A DNA stretch of 64,000 nt from Candidatus Bathyarchaeota archaeon (GTDB lineage: Archaea > Thermoproteota > Bathyarchaeia > TCS64), in assembly GCA_016783455.1 (NCBI GenBank), contig JADHWN010000007.1, positions 10,710-74,709 of the forward strand, given 5' to 3'. The notes beneath the pieces were generated by a model. It saw only the letters and a list, made by a program, of their open reading frames with translations, did not search any database and was not told the origin of the DNA. Both the position numbers and the translations under genes were made by a program. Each line of letters opens with the position of its first letter. The first letter of the stretch is position 1. Of this stretch, positions 17,382 to 25,626 are shown in pieces.

Positions 17382-17795
17382 TTGAAGCTTGACCTCATCT
17401 ACCACACCCCCGACGTGGAGACCCTCATCGCCACCGCGATGCTGACCACTACCAGTGGTGCCAAGCCCTCTACGCTCTACAACCGCCTGAAGGAGAAGGA
17501 GAAGCGTGTTGCGGATGTCGTGGGCAGGCTTGAGGCCCAGCACGGGAGCACCCTGGAGCATAACAGGCTGGTCTGGCTTCTGGAGGCCGTGGAAGGCGAG
17601 GTCCTAGACTTTGCGCTTCGGTCGAGGTTCTTAACGATAACTAAACTCGGTGACGACCGCTGGCTGCTCAGCGCAAACCTGAGGACCGTTGTTGAGCTAG
17701 CTGCAGAGGACGATCCCTTCGCAAAGTCGCTGGCGGCTTCGATCCAAGAGGTAGCCCCCAATCTCAGCGTAAGCCCGTCGAGGAGTGGGGCATGA
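17382..17795 (+). CDS. Degenerate ThyX-like protein lacking the RHRxxS signature
   Basis: 'HGSTLEHNRLVWLLE' resembles the ThyX N-terminal half, and 'RSRFLTI' replaces RHR..S..S.RY. The stop overlaps the thyX ATG (ATGA). Confidence 0.45.
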   Translation: MKLDLIYHTPDVETLIATAMLTTTSGAKPSTLYNRLKEKEKRVADVVGRLEAQHGSTLEHNRLVWLLEAVEGEVLDFALRSRFLTITKLGDDRWLLSANLRTVVELAAEDDPFAKSLAASIQEVAPNLSVSPSRSGA

Positions 17796-18412
17796 AAGCG
17801 GAGCTGCTGAGCTTCACGCCCCTCAAGGAGGTGAAGGCGGTCATCCATGAAGACCTTCCCGAGACGGAGCTGCTCCCACACCTTACCTACGTCTACGCCA
17901 TCGAGGGCATCAGCAGGGCCTGCAGCCACCAGCTCGTGAGGCACAGGACCGCCTCCTACTCCCAGCAGAGCCAACGCTACATCCCCGTAAGGAGGCTGCG
18001 GGAGAGGGTAGTGGTCCCCCCCAGCGTCTCGGAGAAGGCCCTGGACGGGTACCTATCACTCATCGAGGGCGCCAGCGACGCCTACGAGGGGCTCGTTGAC
18101 AGGGGCGTCCCCCGGGAGGACGCCCGCTTCGTCCTGCCTAACGCCACCGAGACGAGCCTCCTCTTCACAATCGACGGCCGATCCCTCATCCACTTCTTCG
18201 GCATAAGATGCTGCAACAGGGCCCAGTGGGAGATAAGGGCGCTAGCGGACAGGATGCTTGCCGAGGTCCGCAGGGAGGAGCCCGCGCTGTACAGCCGTGC
18301 CGGTCCATCCTGCTACCAGCTTGGGTACTGTCCAGAGGGGCGCTTCACATGCGGCAAGATGGACGAGGTAGTCGAAAGATACGGCAACCTAATTCAGGAT
18401 ATAGTGGAATAG
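17792..18412 (+). CDS. thyX: FAD-dependent thymidylate synthase
   Basis: 'QLVRHRTASYSQQSQRY' ThyX signature. Confidence 0.85.
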   Translation: MKAELLSFTPLKEVKAVIHEDLPETELLPHLTYVYAIEGISRACSHQLVRHRTASYSQQSQRYIPVRRLRERVVVPPSVSEKALDGYLSLIEGASDAYEGLVDRGVPREDARFVLPNATETSLLFTIDGRSLIHFFGIRCCNRAQWEIRALADRMLAEVRREEPALYSRAGPSCYQLGYCPEGRFTCGKMDEVVERYGNLIQDIVE

Positions 18413-18574: not shown

Positions 18575-19231
18575 ATGAGAAGATTGCTAGCTGTGGTCTC
18601 ACATCCCGACGACGAGACCTTCGGATGCGGTGGAGCCCTGGCCCTCAACGCGAAGCAGGGGGGCTTGAGCCGGGTCCTCTGCCTGACAAGCGACCCGCCG
18701 GAGCGGGGTGACGAGCTCAGGGCAGCGTGCAAGGCCCTGAGGATCGGTAAACCCGTGATCATGGGCCTTGAGAAGATCTCAGCTGATGACGCCGTCATCA
18801 GGCGGGTCTCAGACCACATCGCCTCGTTCAGGCCCGACGTCGTGATAACACACCTCCCTACCGACTATCACAGGGACCACCGGGCGACCTACGAGGTCGT
18901 GAAGGAGGCGGTGGAGTGGGCAGCCCACACGACCGCGTACGAGGAGCCCTGGCTCGTCGGTAGGCTGCTGCTCATGGAGGTGAACACCCTGATCTCAAGC
19001 CCCCACGTCCTACTGGACATCTCAGACGTCTGGGCTCTCAAGGAGGCGGCTCTCGAGAGCCACCCCACGCAGCTTGCCAAGTTCAAGGACGGCTACTATC
19101 AGAGGTTCACCAAGGCGAAGGCTGAGCTAAGGGGCGTGCAGGGCGGATGCAGCTACGCGGAGGCCTTCATCGAGGAACCACTCCAGAGGAACGGGCCCTT
19201 CTACGAGACGAAGGCGTCCAAGTCCCTGTAG
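18575..19231 (+). CDS. bshB: PIG-L/LmbE-family N-acetylglucosaminyl deacetylase (BshB-like)
   Basis: 'AVVSHPDDETFGCGG' and 'DYHRDHR' motifs. ATG at 18575 is preferred over the track start at 18458. Confidence 0.7.
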   Translation: MRRLLAVVSHPDDETFGCGGALALNAKQGGLSRVLCLTSDPPERGDELRAACKALRIGKPVIMGLEKISADDAVIRRVSDHIASFRPDVVITHLPTDYHRDHRATYEVVKEAVEWAAHTTAYEEPWLVGRLLLMEVNTLISSPHVLLDISDVWALKEAALESHPTQLAKFKDGYYQRFTKAKAELRGVQGGCSYAEAFIEEPLQRNGPFYETKASKSL

Positions 19232-19295
19232 CAATTTCCCCGTCATGGAAAACGTTTAAAGCGACCCTAAGGGCTGGATTCTAAGGTTGTACTCT

Positions 19296-20240
19296 ATGAA
19301 TCTCTACGGCCTCAAGGTAATCGACTTCCACTCCCACTTCCCCCGCCAGAGAACCGGGAGGAGCGCCAGCTGGAGGGCGCGCATGGTGGAGCGGTACGGG
19401 GAGCGGAGGACGGACATCATCCTGGAGAACTCCCGCCGGTACAGGGACGATTGGAGGAAGATGTGGGCCTTCGACGAGTACGAGACCGACGTCCACACAG
19501 ACGAGGAGCAGGCCGAACGATGGGTCGCGGACATGGACGCCAAGGGCCTCTCCAGGGTCAACTTCGTGATGGGAGGCGGAAACGACAACCTCTCGAAGAT
19601 CGTGTCCTGGTACCCGGACCGCTTCACGGGCTTCGCCCACCACAGCGTCTGGGACGAGGACGCAGCGGAGGAGCTCGAGAGGGCGGTGAATGAGCTGGGC
19701 CTCAAGGGCTTCAAGATGATCGCGTCCAGCCAGCAGAGGCCCATCGACGACAAGGCCGCCTACCCGGTCTGGGAGATGGCCGAGAACCTTGAGGTGCCCG
19801 TGCTCATCCACTTCGGCGTCCTCGGGGGCGGCGGCGGTCCCGCGTACGACCTCAGGAACATGAACCCATTGACGCTGTGGAAGGTCTGCAGCGACTTCCC
19901 CACCCTCAACTTCGTCATCCCCCACTTCGGCGCCTGCTACTGGAGGGAGCTCCTCCAGCTCTGCTGGCAGTGCCCCAGCGTCCACGTCGACACATCGGGC
20001 TCCAACCAGTGGATGAGGTGGATGCCCTACGAGCTCACCATGAAGGACCTATTCAGGAAGTCCATGGAGACCATAGGCGCCGAGAGGCTCATCTTCGCAA
20101 CCGACTCCAGCTGGTTCCCCCGGGGGTTCAGCGTCGAGTACCTCAGGGAGCAGCTCAGGGTCTGTTACGACATGGGCCTCGACGAAGAGAGCATTGGGAA
20201 GATCTTCTACGACAACGCCGCTAGGCTGCTGAAGCTCTAG
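19296..20240 (+). CDS. Amidohydrolase-2 (ACMSD-like) family metal hydrolase
   Basis: 'VIDFHSHF' N-terminal metal motif, 'IHFG', 'FATDSSWFP'. Confidence 0.7.
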   Translation: MNLYGLKVIDFHSHFPRQRTGRSASWRARMVERYGERRTDIILENSRRYRDDWRKMWAFDEYETDVHTDEEQAERWVADMDAKGLSRVNFVMGGGNDNLSKIVSWYPDRFTGFAHHSVWDEDAAEELERAVNELGLKGFKMIASSQQRPIDDKAAYPVWEMAENLEVPVLIHFGVLGGGGGPAYDLRNMNPLTLWKVCSDFPTLNFVIPHFGACYWRELLQLCWQCPSVHVDTSGSNQWMRWMPYELTMKDLFRKSMETIGAERLIFATDSSWFPRGFSVEYLREQLRVCYDMGLDEESIGKIFYDNAARLLKL

Positions 20241-20301
20241 ACCCTTCACAAGGGTTTTTATCCCCCTCTAAAAAGAATAAGCCAGTCATACTGCTCATAT
20301 T

Positions 20302-22059
20302 GTGGTCGACATGGCTCAGGAAGACGTTCTACGACCCGCCCACGAGCTCTACACAAGCCACGTGGAGAAAGGTGCCCGAGGTGGTCTTGCAGAGGAGCTG
20401 TGGGGGCGTATCCCCACCACCATGGGGGAGGCGTACGGCCTCCTCAAGGGGGTAAAGGCGGGGTACGGTGAGGCCTCCGACTCCCTCGAGGAGCTGAAGG
20501 GGGCGATGAAGTCCAACCTTCGCAGATTAGGGATCCTGACCTCGTCTGTCTCCGAGAACATCGACCGCCTCGAAAACGGGGTCGTGGAGACGGGGCAGCA
20601 GCCTAACGCCATCGGAGGCCCGAGCCTAGTCCTGAACAAGATAGCTTACGCCAAGAGCCTGAGCGGCATGGGGGAGGAGGGCTATGTGCCCCTGTTCTAC
20701 ATGGCTGACTATGACGGTGTCCAGCCTGAGCTCACCAACACCCGTGTGCCCAGCCCCTCCTCGCGAGGCGTCCTCATCAGCTACCCCACGTCCCCCGAGC
20801 AGGAGGGGGTGCCCATCCACGAGATACCCAACCCATCTGAGGCCTGGTTGAATCAGACACTGGATAAGCTTACGAGCAACTACCGGGGTCTCCTCAATGG
20901 CGCTGACAGCCGGCTGAGGGAGCGGGCCCTGATGAACCTCGACCACGCGATAACGGTTCTGAAGAGCGCCTTCCACTCCACGGAGAACGTCTCAGACTGG
21001 TCTACAAAGGTGATAGGCTCCATCGTCAACCTTGAGGCCGACCTGGGAGTCCCGATCCTCAGCCACTCCATGCCGGGGACGCGCCACATCTTCCAGCAGG
21101 GATACGAGGTTCTTCTCACCGATTCGAATCGTGAAACGTTCATCGAGGTCTCTAACCGGGCGGCTGAGAAGGTGGAGGCGTCGGGTCATAGACCCGGGAT
21201 CGGCCTCAGGGACCCGGACTACGTCCCGTTCTTCTACGAGTGCCAGACGCCCGGATGCCAGAGGCGCCGGGTGGAGCTAGGCTACCGCCGCGACACGGGC
21301 TCTACCACGGCCAGCGTTGGGGGCAAGTGCCCAAAGTGCGGCGCAGTCTACGAGTTCTCGTTCAACGCGAGCACCCCCGACCTGTCCGACATCGTAGGAA
21401 GTATCTCCCCGAGGGTCGACTCCCGCCAGATAATCATGGACTCCGTCCTCCCGATACTGGCCCACGTCGGGGGACCCGGGGAGACGAACTACTACTCTGA
21501 GGTGATCCCGGCTGCCAAGGCCGTCGGCCTCCCCTTTCCGGTCTTCCTCCGGTACACACGCCTCTTCTACAACACACCGTGGAACGAGGGGTACGCCAAG
21601 GAACTGAAGTGGCTAGGATATCGCAGCCTGGCGGATGAGAGGCTGTTCAGCGCTCTCAGCGGCTGGGTGCAGGCTCGGAACCAGGGTGATACGGAGGGGT
21701 TGAAGAAGGCCCATGTGGCGATCAGGTCCTGCGTTGAGTCGACGGACCGGGAGCTCAGGGAGATACTGGAAGGCCTGAACGCGGAGATCGAGGGGATAAA
21801 GCGTAAGCTAAGCTCCTCGGAGGATAGGGGGGCCCTCATCGCGGAGATGAGAGGGAAGCAGGCGATGGTCCAGAAAGTCGAGGTCTACCTCTCCTCGGCC
21901 CTGGGGCGGTTCAGTCCGGAGAGGTTCGGTCAGGAGGTGAGCTGGGCATGGTTGGATGTCGCGGTGGTCTCGGGGATGGGGGACCTAATGGGGGTCTTCA
22001 TGCGCCAGTACAGCGAGAACACTCCCAACTCGTCGATGTTCTACGCGAACCTAGGCTGA
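20302..22059 (+). CDS. bshC: BshC-like putative cysteine ligase with an inserted CxxC...CxxC zinc ribbon
   Basis: 'ETGQQPNAIGGPSLVLNKI' and 'HVGGPGETNYYSE' match remembered BshC motifs. Cys pairs at aa 314/319 and 343/346. Confidence 0.65.
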   Translation: MVDMAQEDVLRPAHELYTSHVEKGARGGLAEELWGRIPTTMGEAYGLLKGVKAGYGEASDSLEELKGAMKSNLRRLGILTSSVSENIDRLENGVVETGQQPNAIGGPSLVLNKIAYAKSLSGMGEEGYVPLFYMADYDGVQPELTNTRVPSPSSRGVLISYPTSPEQEGVPIHEIPNPSEAWLNQTLDKLTSNYRGLLNGADSRLRERALMNLDHAITVLKSAFHSTENVSDWSTKVIGSIVNLEADLGVPILSHSMPGTRHIFQQGYEVLLTDSNRETFIEVSNRAAEKVEASGHRPGIGLRDPDYVPFFYECQTPGCQRRRVELGYRRDTGSTTASVGGKCPKCGAVYEFSFNASTPDLSDIVGSISPRVDSRQIIMDSVLPILAHVGGPGETNYYSEVIPAAKAVGLPFPVFLRYTRLFYNTPWNEGYAKELKWLGYRSLADERLFSALSGWVQARNQGDTEGLKKAHVAIRSCVESTDRELREILEGLNAEIEGIKRKLSSSEDRGALIAEMRGKQAMVQKVEVYLSSALGRFSPERFGQEVSWAWLDVAVVSGMGDLMGVFMRQYSENTPNSSMFYANLG

Positions 22060-23199
22060 CGTGATCTCCTCGTAGACCTCGATATACTGGCCCACGATCT
22101 TGTCGATGGTGTACCTCTCCATGACCGTCTCCCGGGCCGCGTCTCCCAGTCTCTTCCTTAGCCCCGGGTCGGCGTTGAGCTCCAGGATCCTCTCGGCAAT
22201 TGCCTCCGGGTGCTTCAGGGGGACGAGGAAGCCGTTGACGCCGTCGTCGACTATCTCGGGGATCCCCCCGACCTCCGTGGCGACGACGGGTAGTCCGCAG
22301 CTCATGCCCTCCAGGAGGGTGAGGGGGGTGCTCTCCGTTTCCGAGCAGAGGACGACGATATCGGCGCATCCCAGAAGATGGGGGACGTCGCTCCTGTATC
22401 CCGTGAAGAGGACGTGCCTGTTGAGGTCCAACTGGTCCACGAGCTTCTCGATCTTGTGCCTTTCGGGGCCGTCACCAACGAGGACGAGGCGTGCCTCCGG
22501 GGCCTTCTTGGTGACGATGCTCATTGCGTAGACGAGGTCCCCTATCCTCTTCACCGGCCTGAAGTTGGAGATGTGGGTGACCACGACGTCCCTGCCCTTA
22601 ATGACCTCGGGGTCCTCGCATGGGGCGGGGAAGAACCTATCGGAGTCCACGAAGTTGGATATTACCTTGATCTCCCGTGAGATCCCCAGGCTCTCATGGG
22701 CCTCCTTAGCGATGAAGTTTGAGACAGCTGTGACCGCGTCGGCCCTCTCCAGGGAGAGGGTGTTGACGGGCATGTAGGAGGCGTCGCTCCCCAGGATGGT
22801 GACGTCGGAGCCGTGGAGCGTTGCGACGTAGGGCTTCCCCGTGAGCTCCCGGGCGAGGAATGCGGCCGTCGAGTGGGGGAGGGCGTAGTGGACGTGGAGG
22901 AGGTCCAGGTCCTGCTGCTCGGTGATCCTGAACATCTCGGAGCCGAGGGCGACGGTGTAGGGCGGGTACTTGAACAGGGGGTACTCGACGACGGAGACGA
23001 GGTGGACATACACGTTCTCGTAGTCCTGATCCTGGATAGCGACCGGGCGCTCGTAGGTGATGAAGTGTGTCTCGTGCCCCCTCTTCGCCAGCTCCACACC
23101 GAGGCGGGTGGCTAATATGCCGCTTCCTCCCACGGTAGGGTAGCAGGTTATCCCTATCTTCATACTGTGTCCTCTCTCCCGTTCTAAGATGTGTTTCAT
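22051..23199 (-). CDS. bshA: GT4 glycosyltransferase, BshA-like (N-acetylglucosaminyl-malate synthase)
   Basis: 'MKIGITCYPTVGGSGILATRLGVELAKRGHETHFIT' closely parallels the Bacillus BshA N-terminus. Confidence 0.8.
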   Translation of the reverse strand: MKHILERERGHSMKIGITCYPTVGGSGILATRLGVELAKRGHETHFITYERPVAIQDQDYENVYVHLVSVVEYPLFKYPPYTVALGSEMFRITEQQDLDLLHVHYALPHSTAAFLARELTGKPYVATLHGSDVTILGSDASYMPVNTLSLERADAVTAVSNFIAKEAHESLGISREIKVISNFVDSDRFFPAPCEDPEVIKGRDVVVTHISNFRPVKRIGDLVYAMSIVTKKAPEARLVLVGDGPERHKIEKLVDQLDLNRHVLFTGYRSDVPHLLGCADIVVLCSETESTPLTLLEGMSCGLPVVATEVGGIPEIVDDGVNGFLVPLKHPEAIAERILELNADPGLRKRLGDAARETVMERYTIDKIVGQYIEVYEEITSA

Positions 23200-23237
23200 G
23201 AGAGAACGGCTAAATAAAAACGGTGAGTATAGATGTG

Positions 23238-23711
23238 CTATGTGCCCTTCATCCGTTTCTCGACGCCGAGGATGGCTGCGATCTGCCCTTCGTGGTGGAT
23301 GATCTCCGAGATCATGCCCATGAGGGCTGCCTCGCGCTTCCTCTTGCCCCTGAAGTACTCGATCTCCTCTTCGAGTTTACTGTCGTCGAGTTTGTCGAGG
23401 CCTTTCAGGAGCTTCTCCTGGCCAGACTTTACGTCCCCCATGATCTTCTCCAGCGTGTAGCTCGTGTTGCCGGAGTAGTCGTCCGGCCAGCCCTCGGGCT
23501 TGTAGCTCCAGTCGCCCTTGATGATCCGAGGGAGGTAGATGTGCATCTCCTGTGAGACGTGGGTCAGGATATTTCTGATGGTGTTGGCCTCGGAGCATGA
23601 CTTCCAGTCGAGCTGCTCCGGGGTGAGGTCCTTGGTGGCCCTCTCCAGACGGCTCAGCCCTACCTGTGTGAACGCTTTAATGGTCTCTACTTTTTCGGAC
23701 ATGTTTTTCAC
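23238..23711 (-). CDS. DinB/YfiT-like superfamily protein (candidate thiol S-transferase)
   Basis: 157 aa, four-helix DinB pattern with His residues (ILTHV...IIHHEGQI). Confidence 0.7.
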   Translation of the reverse strand: MKNMSEKVETIKAFTQVGLSRLERATKDLTPEQLDWKSCSEANTIRNILTHVSQEMHIYLPRIIKGDWSYKPEGWPDDYSGNTSYTLEKIMGDVKSGQEKLLKGLDKLDDSKLEEEIEYFRGKRKREAALMGMISEIIHHEGQIAAILGVEKRMKGT

Positions 23712-23796
23712 CTTAGAACTGTGTGTTGGGATGAGGTCTGATTGCTTTTATGTCTAGCGGTGGGTTAGCTGGTAATATATAAAAAAGGGGGGAGGT

Positions 23797-24261
23797 TTAC
23801 TCCTTCTCCTTGAGGCGCTTCATGGTACCCTTGAGGTAGGCGATCTGGCCCCTGTGGTGGACGAGCTCCCCGAGGTACGCGAAGATCCCAGTTTTCCTCT
23901 TCTCGGTCCCCCTCCAGAGGGGTATCTCCTCCTCCAGCTGCTCCGACGTGAGGTTGCCGATGCCCTTCAGGACGACCTCCTTCGAGGCGTCGATGTCCTT
24001 GAGCATCTTCTCTACTGTGTAGTCCTTGTTCCTGTAGTCGTCGGGCCAGTCCGCGGGCGTGTACTCCTGGTTTCCCTTGATGATGCGTGGGATGCTGACG
24101 TTGGCGATCCTTGACATGTGGTTGAGGGTCCACGCGACGCTGTTGGATTCCTCCGTGGGCTTCCACTTGGCGTCCTCCTCGGTGATGCCTTCAACTGTGC
24201 GGCTTATCGATCCGAAGATGTACTCTGCCTGGTCCTTCAGGATTGAACCTTTCTCCGACAT
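23797..24261 (-). CDS. DinB/YfiT-like superfamily protein, paralog of 23238..23711
   Basis: 154 aa; shares 'PRIIKG..W..P.GWPDDY' and 'HH.GQIA' with its neighbour. Confidence 0.7.
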   Translation of the reverse strand: MSEKGSILKDQAEYIFGSISRTVEGITEEDAKWKPTEESNSVAWTLNHMSRIANVSIPRIIKGNQEYTPADWPDDYRNKDYTVEKMLKDIDASKEVVLKGIGNLTSEQLEEEIPLWRGTEKRKTGIFAYLGELVHHRGQIAYLKGTMKRLKEKE

Positions 24262-24432: not shown

Positions 24433-25626
24433 ATGGGGGACACATCTGATCCATACGAGAAATTCGGTTTGAGGCGTGTCATCAACGCCTCGACAAGCAT
24501 GACCCGCCTGGGGGGCTCCATGCCCAAGCCGGAGGTGTTCAGGGCGATGGAGGAGGCGTCGAGGGCGTTCATCAGGATACCTGAGCTCCAGGTCTGGGCC
24601 GGGAGGAGGATAGCCGAGGCCTTCGGCGTGGAGGCCGGACTTCCCACGGCCGGGGGGTCCAATGGTATCACGCTGGCGGCAGCGGCGTGCATCATGAGGG
24701 GTACCGAGCTTGAGGGCTACGATCCCCTGGAGCCCCAGACGTGGATTCCAGTCGCGCAGAGGCTCCCTATGCACACGGAGGGGCTCAAGACGGAGTTCGT
24801 CATCCAGCGGAGCACCCGGAGCGAATACGACCACGCCATCGAGTGCGCAGGGGGGACCCTCGTCGAGGTGGGCTCGGAGAAGGGGGCGACGCCAGAGGAG
24901 CTGAGAGAGGCCTTCAACCCCGAGAGGACCGCCGCCTACCACTACACCGTCACTGCCTCAAAGAACAGGCTTCCCGTGGAGGACGTGGCCCGTATAGCCC
25001 ACGAGAGGGGCGTCCCCGTCACCGTCGACGCCGCACCCCACCTCACCCACAGGGGAGTTCCAAAAGCTCTCCTTGAGATGGGTGCCGATCTAGTCTCCTT
25101 CAGCGGTGGGAAGCACCTCGGTGGGCTCAACAACACGGGCATCCTCGTGGGCAGGAAGGACCTTGTGAAGCTCGCGCACCTCCAGTCCTACCCCTTCGAC
25201 GGCGTCGGCAGGGGGGCCAAGATGAGCAGGGAGGTGATCGTGGGGCTGATAAAGGCCGTCGAGCTGTTCGTGGGGAGGGATGACGGGGCGTTCTACGGAG
25301 CCCTGGAGAAGGTGTCGTTCGAGCTCTCAAGGAGGCTGGGTGAGATTCAGGGCGTAAGCTCCGGAGTCGTCTACGAGCCTGCTGCGATTGAGGGTGTCCT
25401 GGGTCCGTCCTACGCTTACATTACTTTGGATGAGGGAGCCAGCATCTCCCTCAGGGAGCTCCACAGGAAGCTTCGGGAGGGGGAGCCCGCCATAGAGGCG
25501 CTCTATGAGCCCTTCTTCATAACCCCGGAAGCGGCTGGGAAGATCACCATCAAGGCCGAGTATCTCCTTGAGGGGGACGACGAGATAATCCTCGATCGTG
25601 TGGCACAAATTGTCGGAGAAAAATAG
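24433..25626 (+). CDS. SelA-like PLP-dependent enzyme (MJ0158/DgaE-like)
   Basis: 'FSGGKHLGG' PLP-lysine context and 'RVINASTSMTRLGGS' N-terminus. Confidence 0.65.
   Translation: MGDTSDPYEKFGLRRVINASTSMTRLGGSMPKPEVFRAMEEASRAFIRIPELQVWAGRRIAEAFGVEAGLPTAGGSNGITLAAAACIMRGTELEGYDPLEPQTWIPVAQRLPMHTEGLKTEFVIQRSTRSEYDHAIECAGGTLVEVGSEKGATPEELREAFNPERTAAYHYTVTASKNRLPVEDVARIAHERGVPVTVDAAPHLTHRGVPKALLEMGADLVSFSGGKHLGGLNNTGILVGRKDLVKLAHLQSYPFDGVGRGAKMSREVIVGLIKAVELFVGRDDGAFYGALEKVSFELSRRLGEIQGVSSGVVYEPAAIEGVLGPSYAYITLDEGASISLRELHRKLREGEPAIEALYEPFFITPEAAGKITIKAEYLLEGDDEIILDRVAQIVGEK

Follow-up and report, generated by a model that had tools for sequence, protein, structure and literature searches.

A conserved gene cluster of Bathyarchaeia predicted to encode a pathway for a bacillithiol-type low-molecular-weight thiol

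The question raised by the locus described here is whether an archaeon makes a low-molecular-weight thiol of the bacillithiol type, in which cysteine, a hexosamine and malate are joined; bacillithiol is a protective thiol whose occurrence is established for bacteria only. Archaeal redox-buffer thiols are known for few groups (gamma-glutamylcysteine in haloarchaea, coenzyme A in some thermophiles), and Bathyarchaeia are widespread sediment archaea. The locus belongs to an uncultured Candidatus Bathyarchaeota archaeon (assembly GCA_016783455.1, contig JADHWN010000007.1) and lies in the stretch of 64,000 nucleotides (nt) that was analyzed, hereafter the window, in which positions 18575 to 24261 hold six genes arranged in two convergent units (Table 1). 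A preliminary description had placed the six genes at these coordinates, had reported the motifs GQQP..GGP and VGGPGE in one product, and had read five of the genes as a bacillithiol-type cluster; translation and profile searches found both the coordinates and the motifs to be correct. In this study, we report a computational analysis of the cluster, according to which it probably makes a thiol of the Cys-hexosamine-malate type. The basis in hand is family membership, fold, motif conservation, gene order and co-occurrence, from which we infer a locus for the biosynthesis and use of such a thiol, with all chemical steps and the identity of the product predicted.

BshA is the sole protein of the cluster above its NCBI equivalog cut-off. 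The gene of glycosyltransferase family 4 (GT4) that had been said to parallel BshA encodes a BshA equivalogue, with 419 bits against a cut-off of 273.7 for TIGR03999 over profile positions 1–374 of 375, while the next-best GT4 model reached 173.5 bits. Its PDB matches comprised the BshA structures 3mbo, 2jjm and 5d00 of B. anthracis and B. subtilis (E 1e-97 to 1e-87) and two unnamed glycosyltransferase entries, 6d9t and 6n1x, the whole set ranging from E 1e-97 to 1e-81; 6d9t is the BshA of S. aureus (PMC10361700). Identity to Asgard BshA was 43–46%, no higher than the similarity to Bacillus BshA, and thus points to no particular donor of the gene. A contig search with this single protein returned two close Bathyarchaeia loci and otherwise only unrelated GT4 genes.

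The BshC-like protein is a true, full-length and very divergent BshC homologue. It matched PF10079 with 55.6 bits (gathering score, 27) and carries the motifs GQQPNAIGGP and VGGPGE, and a single-sequence search (phmmer) against 4wbd, the BshC of B. subtilis, gave only E 0.006. The top Foldseek match of its AlphaFold2 model (predicted local distance difference test, pLDDT, 95.5) was the same structure, with E 3e-20 and template modelling (TM) scores of 0.68/0.73, followed by class I Lys-, Met- and Glu-tRNA synthetases, with MshC in 41st place. When a profile of 34 archaeal-type sequences was aligned with hhalign to a canonical BshC profile, for which 14 of the 16 sequences of the comparison set match TIGR03998, the probability was 100% (E 1.4e-45, 497 columns). 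Residues Q97, D135, R320 and G388 are invariant in both subfamilies, and GQQ, D135, R320 and GGPGE-Y are invariant or nearly so across the 34 archaeal-type and 11 canonical-length sequences. The homology is concluded from this fold match, the profile–profile match and the conserved core positions, which all agree, at an identity between archaeal-type and canonical BshC of about 15–19%.

An exhaustive search for BshC-like homologues among 1.8 billion cluster representatives yielded about 50 clusters at E < 1e-30, then a gap, and then canonical BshC-length proteins matching only at the motifs. All named members of the close group were Bathyarchaeia or Asgard archaea (Heimdall-, Hod-, Thor-, Prometh- and Ranarchaeia). 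A quick maximum-likelihood tree was rooted on canonical BshC, with most rows lacking a name and the Shimodaira–Hasegawa-like approximate likelihood ratio test (SH-aLRT) as the sole support measure. The 34 archaeal-type sequences formed one clade in it (SH-aLRT 99), within which those of Bathyarchaeia grouped together (SH-aLRT 100) amid four or more clades with Asgard-named members. This subfamily is further marked by a zinc-ribbon-like element, which a separate earlier note had pointed out and which is borne out by its cysteines: C311 and C340 occur in all 34 sequences and C343 in nearly all of them, most have a second upstream Cys, and the element is absent from 8 of the 11 canonical-length representatives.

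Some further BshC relatives must be mentioned. Three metagenomic proteins of 534–570 residues (P0197, P0222 and P0249) form their own clade between canonical and archaeal-type BshC (SH-aLRT 98) and likewise carry a Cys-rich ribbon. A 581-amino-acid frame in another Bathyarchaeia family (G136:C31:101222-102271) matches the BshC-like protein weakly (26% identity, E 1e-11) and may be a different BshC-family lineage. In one metagenomic contig (L025, 4302-7656, plus strand), an archaeal-type BshC-like gene is immediately preceded, on the same strand, by a gene for cysteinyl-tRNA synthetase, a single case that is suggestive with respect to an activated-cysteine donor.

The LmbE/PIG-L protein, previously described as BshB-like, matched PF02585 with 71 bits (gathering score, 28.2) and has the zinc motifs HPDD and HxDH, both of which align in its best PDB matches, TT1542, BcZBP (2ixd) and BshB1 (6p2t). 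Its best named models are those of BshB1 (TIGR04001; 71.7 bits, cut-off 182.5) and BshB2 (TIGR04000; 68.5 bits, cut-off 195.25), and the description therefore holds at a level below the equivalog cut-offs. Taken together, the hidden Markov model check that the preliminary description had proposed gave a BshA above TIGR03999, an LmbE protein closest to BshB1 and BshB2, and a BshC-like protein matching PF10079. A second LmbE paralogue was found in the same genome (L044 in G000:C66; 1072-3075 and 3135-3662, minus strand). It scores better than the cluster copy with the BshB1 model (117 bits, cut-off 182.5), adjoins a GH4 alpha-galactosidase-like gene and has a ResA/TlpA-like thioredoxin nearby; the LmbE/GH4 pair may serve aminosugar catabolism or supply a second activity of the BshB/Bca kind.

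The two tandem DinB/YfiT-like proteins, also noted before, are paralogues 39% identical to each other. Protein 1 (the copy next to BshA) matched PF12867 (40.2 bits), PF05163 (29 bits) and PF04978 (28.7 bits), and protein 2 matched PF12867 (45.6 bits) and PF04978 (36.7 bits), so that both exceed the DinB_2 and MST gathering scores (24.8 for PF12867 and 27 for PF04978). The closest solved relative is a mycothiol S-transferase, the best PDB matches of protein 2 being Rv0443 (8f5v and 8fx9, E 2e-8); with the Rv0443 equivalog model NF047843 the two proteins reached 45.5 and 20.5 bits, below its cut-off of 170. The DinB genes occupy the same place in loci L001 and L002.

The distribution of these genes is narrow and concerted. 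In a sample of the class (150 genomes), BshC-like genes were found in the window's own family only, plus one weak match elsewhere, and in a sample of the phylum (300 genomes of 48 families) none was found except that same weak match. A table of 61 genomes of the family, including the window's own, was compiled; the genomes are related, and its counts are to be read as a pattern, not as a statistical test. The BshC-like gene is present in 50 of the 61, BshA above its cut-off in 47, the LmbE orthologue next to the cluster in 44 and the Amidohydro_2 orthologue in 46. All four genes are absent from the same 11 genomes (genera g4, g8, g81 and parts of g2 and g3), six of which are 86–96% complete; where only a single gene is missing from one of the other genomes, the gap mostly falls at a contig end. 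The arrangement recurs in at least 14 related genomes with BshC-like proteins diverged to 55–68% identity, and the clustering is not due to chance. Outside the family, BshA or BshB is linked to an archaeal-type BshC in the unrelated Asgard contigs L010, L021 and L022. The association of BshC-like genes with BshA and BshB-type deacetylase genes is thus seen in the window, in L001, L002, L010, L021 and L022, and in the 61-genome table.

In the pathway that we propose, BshA would join an N-acetylhexosamine from a uridine diphosphate (UDP) donor to L-malate, the LmbE zinc deacetylase would remove the acetyl group, and the zinc-ribbon BshC-like enzyme would add cysteine to the freed amine. The two DinB-fold proteins, presumably co-transcribed with BshA, would then conjugate electrophiles with the thiol. 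A functional link to the pathway is also probable for the Amidohydro_2 enzyme, a fourth component that could tailor the product, recycle it or assist cysteine addition. A class I fumarate hydratase is encoded in the genome and can supply malate. The window's assembly is a metagenome-assembled genome (MAG) of 2.19 Mb, 75% complete and with 4.9% estimated contamination; neither a GCS2-type glutamate-cysteine ligase nor EgtD was detected in it, and hence no other dedicated thiol pathway.

Several observations weigh against this proposal. The BshC-like protein falls below the TIGR03998 equivalog cut-off (61 vs 265.8 bits), the LmbE protein is far under those of BshB1 and BshB2, and the segment of BshA that contacts N-acetylglucosamine (GlcNAc) in bacteria, ESFG, is not kept in the window, where ESTP differs from every bacterial BshA compared. 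The 75%-complete genome gave no equivalogue of YpdA/Bdr (best match 62 vs 340 bits, thioredoxin reductase-like) and no match to BrxA/B (PF06491) or BrxC/YtxJ (TIGR04019), and disulfide recycling is consequently unexplained. In a closed relative genome of 1.5 Mb (G123, CP070640.1; L001, L031 and L032), no PF02585 (PIG-L) gene was found anywhere, and deacetylation is unexplained there. Additionally, bacillithiol has not been detected in any archaeon (PMC7278568), and reconstitution of the BshC reaction has not been achieved in bacteria either, where a missing cofactor, substrate or protein is suspected (PMC5790435). Given the sub-threshold LmbE and BshC-like scores, the changed BshA motif and the recycling proteins not found, the term bacillithiol-type is justified, and bacillithiol itself would be only one candidate product.

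Two side observations belong here. The closed genome CP070640.1 carries two BshA/BshC-like pairs. The window's genome has three Thioredoxin_9-type genes, all outside the cluster, and in locus L002 (11740-12333, minus strand) a gene of the Thioredoxin_9 family stands between BshC-like and BshA and is a candidate bacilliredoxin stand-in.

The changed BshA motif leads to the first of the alternatives, a related but chemically different product with a galacto-configured sugar (a galactosamine-based thiol) or an amino acid other than cysteine, and perhaps no thiol at all. The donor sugar is contacted in GT4 enzymes by the Glu that opens the EX7E motif (PMC8760489). The ESFG segment of BshA, described as highly conserved, hydrogen-bonds GlcNAc, and its E and F are in contact with this sugar (PMC10361700). 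In the window EX7E reads ESTPLTLLE, with both Glu retained, and E-[SN]-[ATS]-P was found at the motif in all 17 Bathyarchaeia BshA examined. At the aligned positions, BshA of B. anthracis and B. subtilis has ESFG and PglA, a UDP-N-acetylgalactosamine (UDP-GalNAc) enzyme, has EGFP, while Asgard BshA has EGMP (L010) or ESFN (L021, Heimdall-type). A polymerase of N. meningitidis W, in which Pro replaces Gly, uses UDP-Gal, and its change from Pro to Gly switches it to UDP-Glc (PMC10361700). Of its defining features, BshA therefore has the equivalog score and lacks ESFG, and its membership is only partial in this regard. Since ES[ATS]P stands in place of the GlcNAc-contacting ESFG, the sugar may differ, and the donor may be a galacto-configured N-acetylhexosamine, a lead resting on two precedents.

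A different product is also favored by the strong divergence of the downstream enzymes and by the Asgard contig L022, which pairs the same type of BshC with a family 2 glycosyltransferase (GT2) and not with BshA. Nevertheless, BshA is full length and lies 145 bits above its equivalog cut-off, and the BshC-family motifs are conserved. The Gly/Pro rule has only the two precedents, the comparison of bacterial BshA motifs was limited to Bacillota, and the Heimdall-type L021 reads ESFN. In addition, the DinB/MST neighbours argue for a thiol. We regard a different product as a minority possibility, and the bacillithiol-type thiol as the more probable reading.

The amidohydrolase, which the preliminary description had found embedded in the cluster, is a conserved part of it, and at least 14 genomes share the gene order. 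For its product, the protein atlas yielded no more than a family name, no NCBIfam model matched, and homologue searches returned Bathyarchaeota orthologues only. Its HxH, His, His and Asp positions, which we take to be the usual metal and catalytic residues of PF04909, are invariant in 17 aligned sequences. Its AlphaFold2 model (pLDDT 86) has a two-helix insertion after strand 1. The nearest folds, at 17–21% identity and TM of about 0.6, are LigW, gamma-resorcylate decarboxylase, LigJ, LigY and the uncharacterised 3nur and 3irs, that is, decarboxylases, hydratase and lactonase-type enzymes, none of them an amidase. With respect to its distribution, the orthologue occurs in 46 of the 50 BshC-positive and in none of the 11 BshC-negative genomes of the family. 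Among the genomes in which both genes could be placed, it directly precedes BshC-like on the same strand in 14 and lies at a distance of 2 kb in one other. A search of 123 genomes from 30 other families (E ≤ 1e-40) recovered neither the orthologue nor its paralogue. Most genomes of genus g2 retain the orthologue at an unlinked position, with variable neighbours: Rieske and major facilitator superfamily genes, an iron-type alcohol dehydrogenase gene or, in one genome, a DinB/MST gene with genes of the dihydrodipicolinate synthase (DHDPS) and PfkB families. A different PF04909 protein follows BshC-like directly in the Promethearchaeota contig L022; orthology to the window's enzyme was not detectable, as BLASTP found nothing and hhalign aligned only the C-terminal half (E 1e-6).

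On this basis we lean towards a functional link between the amidohydrolase and the pathway, in which it may tailor the product, turn over the thiol or its conjugates, or help in the cysteine-adding step. The alternative is a passenger, an enzyme of carbohydrate metabolism (either a sugar-acid lactonase or a decarboxylase) that was lost with the cluster by single deletions and has no role in thiol chemistry. Its nearest folds and its DHDPS-family and PfkB neighbours in g2, where it is unlinked, agree with this, as does a 37%-identical paralogue upstream of an FGGY sugar kinase gene; moreover, any deletion spanning the cluster genes on either side would take it along, and the genomes compared share ancestry and so do not count as independent samples. 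Against a passenger speak the order LmbE–Amidohydro_2–BshC, kept while BshC identity falls to 55–68%, the retention of the gene in most g2 genomes even where unlinked (once beside a DinB/MST gene), its absence from the 123 genomes of other families and the different PF04909 gene after BshC-like in L022. The passenger is consequently judged possible though not favored.

The paralogue (L014, G000:C66, 6087-7004, minus strand) is 35–37% identical to the cluster enzyme and, in the class sample, was found only in genomes also carrying a BshC-like gene. Two other roles were considered for the amidohydrolase and rejected: that of malate supplier, given the fumarate hydratase of the genome, and that of BshB substitute, prompted by G123 without PIG-L, whose amidohydrolase copy is N-terminally truncated and without the HxH strand. 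A bolder proposal, rather doubtful as a whole, is that the window's family and several Asgard lineages make a so far undescribed relative of bacillithiol by a four-enzyme route, with a re-shaped BshA pocket (possibly for UDP-GalNAc), a zinc-ribbon BshC and an obligatory PF04909 enzyme, possibly the partner or tailoring activity without which the bacterial BshC step could not be reconstituted.

It is much less probable that the GT4 and the PIG-L deacetylase act here as in glycosylphosphatidylinositol-anchor or chitobiose pathways, in the synthesis of glycans or the cell envelope or in the catabolism of aminosugars, with an unrelated role for the BshC-like protein. Many glycan pathways employ GT4 and PIG-L proteins, the LmbE protein has a weak match to archaeal diacetylchitobiose deacetylase, and the second LmbE gene of the genome is coupled to a GH4 glycosidase gene. 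However, the GT4 is specifically a BshA equivalogue by the margin over the next-best model given above, the three families occur together, in shared loci, in two archaeal phyla, and DinB/MST-like genes belong to the BshA transcription unit.

The last alternative, bacterial DNA mis-binned or mis-assembled into an archaeal MAG, is suggested by genes typical of bacteria in an incomplete and slightly contaminated assembly, and can be practically dismissed, given that the same contig encodes pheT_arch, archaeal pheS, type III RuBisCO and AMP phosphorylase, that the guanine plus cytosine content is even across the cluster region, and that the cluster recurs in 50 of the 61 family genomes and stands between archaeal ribosomal-protein, Rpb4 and eIF-1A genes in the closed CP070640.1 (L001). 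Contamination was accordingly rejected on the archaeal markers of the contig and the closed relative genome; it would require every related assembly to be chimeric at this one spot. The placement of the cluster in an archaeal chromosome, assumed before, is also upheld by loci with BshA 96% and 90% identical, which are titled Candidatus Bathyarchaeia / Bathyarchaeota MAGs; the NCBI name of the BshC-like homologues is 'bacillithiol biosynthesis BshC [Candidatus Bathyarchaeota archaeon]'.

The annotation of the cluster is provided in Table 1. The gaps within the plus-strand unit are 64 nt (LmbE/Amidohydro_2) and 70 nt (Amidohydro_2/BshC-like), and the convergent BshA and BshC-like genes overlap by 9 nt at their 3' ends. 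The start of LmbE is likely the ATG at 18575, because orthologues align from residue ~38–41 of a longer GTG open reading frame (ORF); a TATA-like TTTTAT lies about 30 nt before this first ATG.

Table 1. Features of the cluster, with positions numbered from the first nucleotide of the window.
Feature	Position	Strand	Remarks
LmbE/PIG-L zinc deacetylase	18575..19231	+	PF02585, 71 bits; candidate BshB-like GlcNAc-malate deacetylase or conjugate amidase
Amidohydro_2 triosephosphate isomerase (TIM)-barrel metal enzyme	19296..20240	+	PF04909, 142 bits; between LmbE and BshC-like genes
Archaeal-type BshC-like protein, putative cysteine-adding enzyme	20311..22059	+	PF10079, 55.6 bits; class I aminoacyl-tRNA synthetase-like Rossmann core and coiled coil
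Zinc-ribbon-like element within the BshC-like protein, holding invariant Arg320	21241..21339	+	Cys311/Cys316 ... Cys340-x2-Cys343
BshA, GT4 N-acetylhexosaminyl-malate synthase equivalogue	22051..23163	-	TIGR03999, 419 bits
BshA EX7E donor-sugar motif, ESTPLTLLE (bacterial: ESFGLVLLE)	22309..22335	-	Translation
DinB_2/MST-like protein 1, putative thiol S-transferase	23238..23702	-	Directly upstream of BshA, same strand
DinB_2/MST-like protein 2, putative thiol S-transferase	23797..24261	-	PF12867, 45.6 bits

Two neighbouring loci were also recorded. A SelA-like pyridoxal phosphate enzyme of the DgaE family (24433-25626, plus strand; TIGR01437, 159 bits, below the cut-off) is encoded divergently to the DinB genes; as its gene does not adjoin the cluster in L001 or L002, it is probably unrelated to it. 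ThyX (17382-18412, plus strand) appears as two ORFs overlapping by 4 nt, the first with a weak match to the N-terminal part of Thy1 only (E 6e-4) and the second with a strong match over profile positions 53–190, which could represent a split gene, a frameshift or a heteromer.

In relation to earlier work, a 2020 review listed archaeal InterPro hits, mostly Asgard, 39 for BshA and 39 for BshC (PMC7278568). No archaeon with a complete bacillithiol pathway emerged from a survey of RefSeq by BLAST in 2025 (PMC12719100), which is understandable since the LmbE and BshC types described here are so divergent. The earlier statement that archaeal bacillithiol rests only on homology agrees with both papers, and our literature search found no paper linking Bathyarchaeia with bacillithiol. 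The archaeal homology matches and the NCBI naming of BshC were already known, and the cluster is a variant of a known pathway and not a new kind. What is new is the family-wide co-occurrence table, the restriction to one family in the class sample with absence from the phylum sample, the BshC membership at the level of fold and profile, the conserved zinc ribbon, the altered EX7E motif and the recycling proteins not found. A complete, conserved and lineage-restricted cluster predicts a bacillithiol-type thiol in Bathyarchaeia, and its BshC subfamily links the family to Asgard archaea. To our knowledge, the BshC reaction is still undefined after 15 years, and the cluster offers two new handles on it, a divergent zinc-ribbon form and a tightly linked candidate partner gene. 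In addition, the altered BshA motif gives a simple and testable prediction about the sugar.

Among the closest known systems is the bacterial bacillithiol pathway (B. subtilis, B. anthracis, Staphylococcus aureus, Deinococcus and Chlorobaculum), which consists of BshA, BshB1/B2 and BshC together with BstA (YfiT, of DinB fold). Both have the three enzyme families, in one locus in the window, with the BshC fold and core motifs and adjoining DinB-fold candidates, and the window's BshA resembles Bacillus BshA (E 1e-97) about as closely as it does that of Asgard archaea. The window differs in its archaeal host, its separate zinc-ribbon BshC clade, an LmbE below the BshB cut-offs, the ES[ATS]P motif, the extra conserved Amidohydro_2 and the failure to find Bdr/YpdA, BrxA/B or BrxC.

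The mycothiol pathway of Actinomycetota (MshA-MshB-MshC-MshD, Mca and an S-transferase) follows the same logic, with a GT4, an LmbE protein, a cysteine ligase resembling class I aminoacyl-tRNA synthetases and a DinB-fold transferase. However, the cluster showed no MshD-like step, and the MshA, MshB and Mca models reach 75, 36 and 28 bits, far below the Bsh models; best matches to mycothiol subfamilies without BshC homology, the outcome that had been named as contradicting a bacillithiol-type cluster, were thus not seen. Known PF04909 enzymes (LigW, gamma-resorcylate decarboxylases, LigJ, LigY and LigI-type lactonases) share the TIM barrel and the His/His/His/Asp set with the window's amidohydrolase, which differs by its identity of at most 21%, its two-helix insertion and the lack of aromatic-acid catabolic genes nearby.

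Finally, the Asgard contig L022 carries a cassette with the order GT2, BshB1 equivalogue, BshC-like and Amidohydro_2. Its GT2 may be either a part of the cassette or an unrelated dolichol-type transferase. The window has the GT4 BshA instead of a GT2, its amidohydrolase gene before BshC and DinB genes attached, while the two loci have in common an archaeal-type zinc-ribbon BshC, a PIG-L deacetylase and a PF04909 enzyme encoded beside the BshC-like gene.

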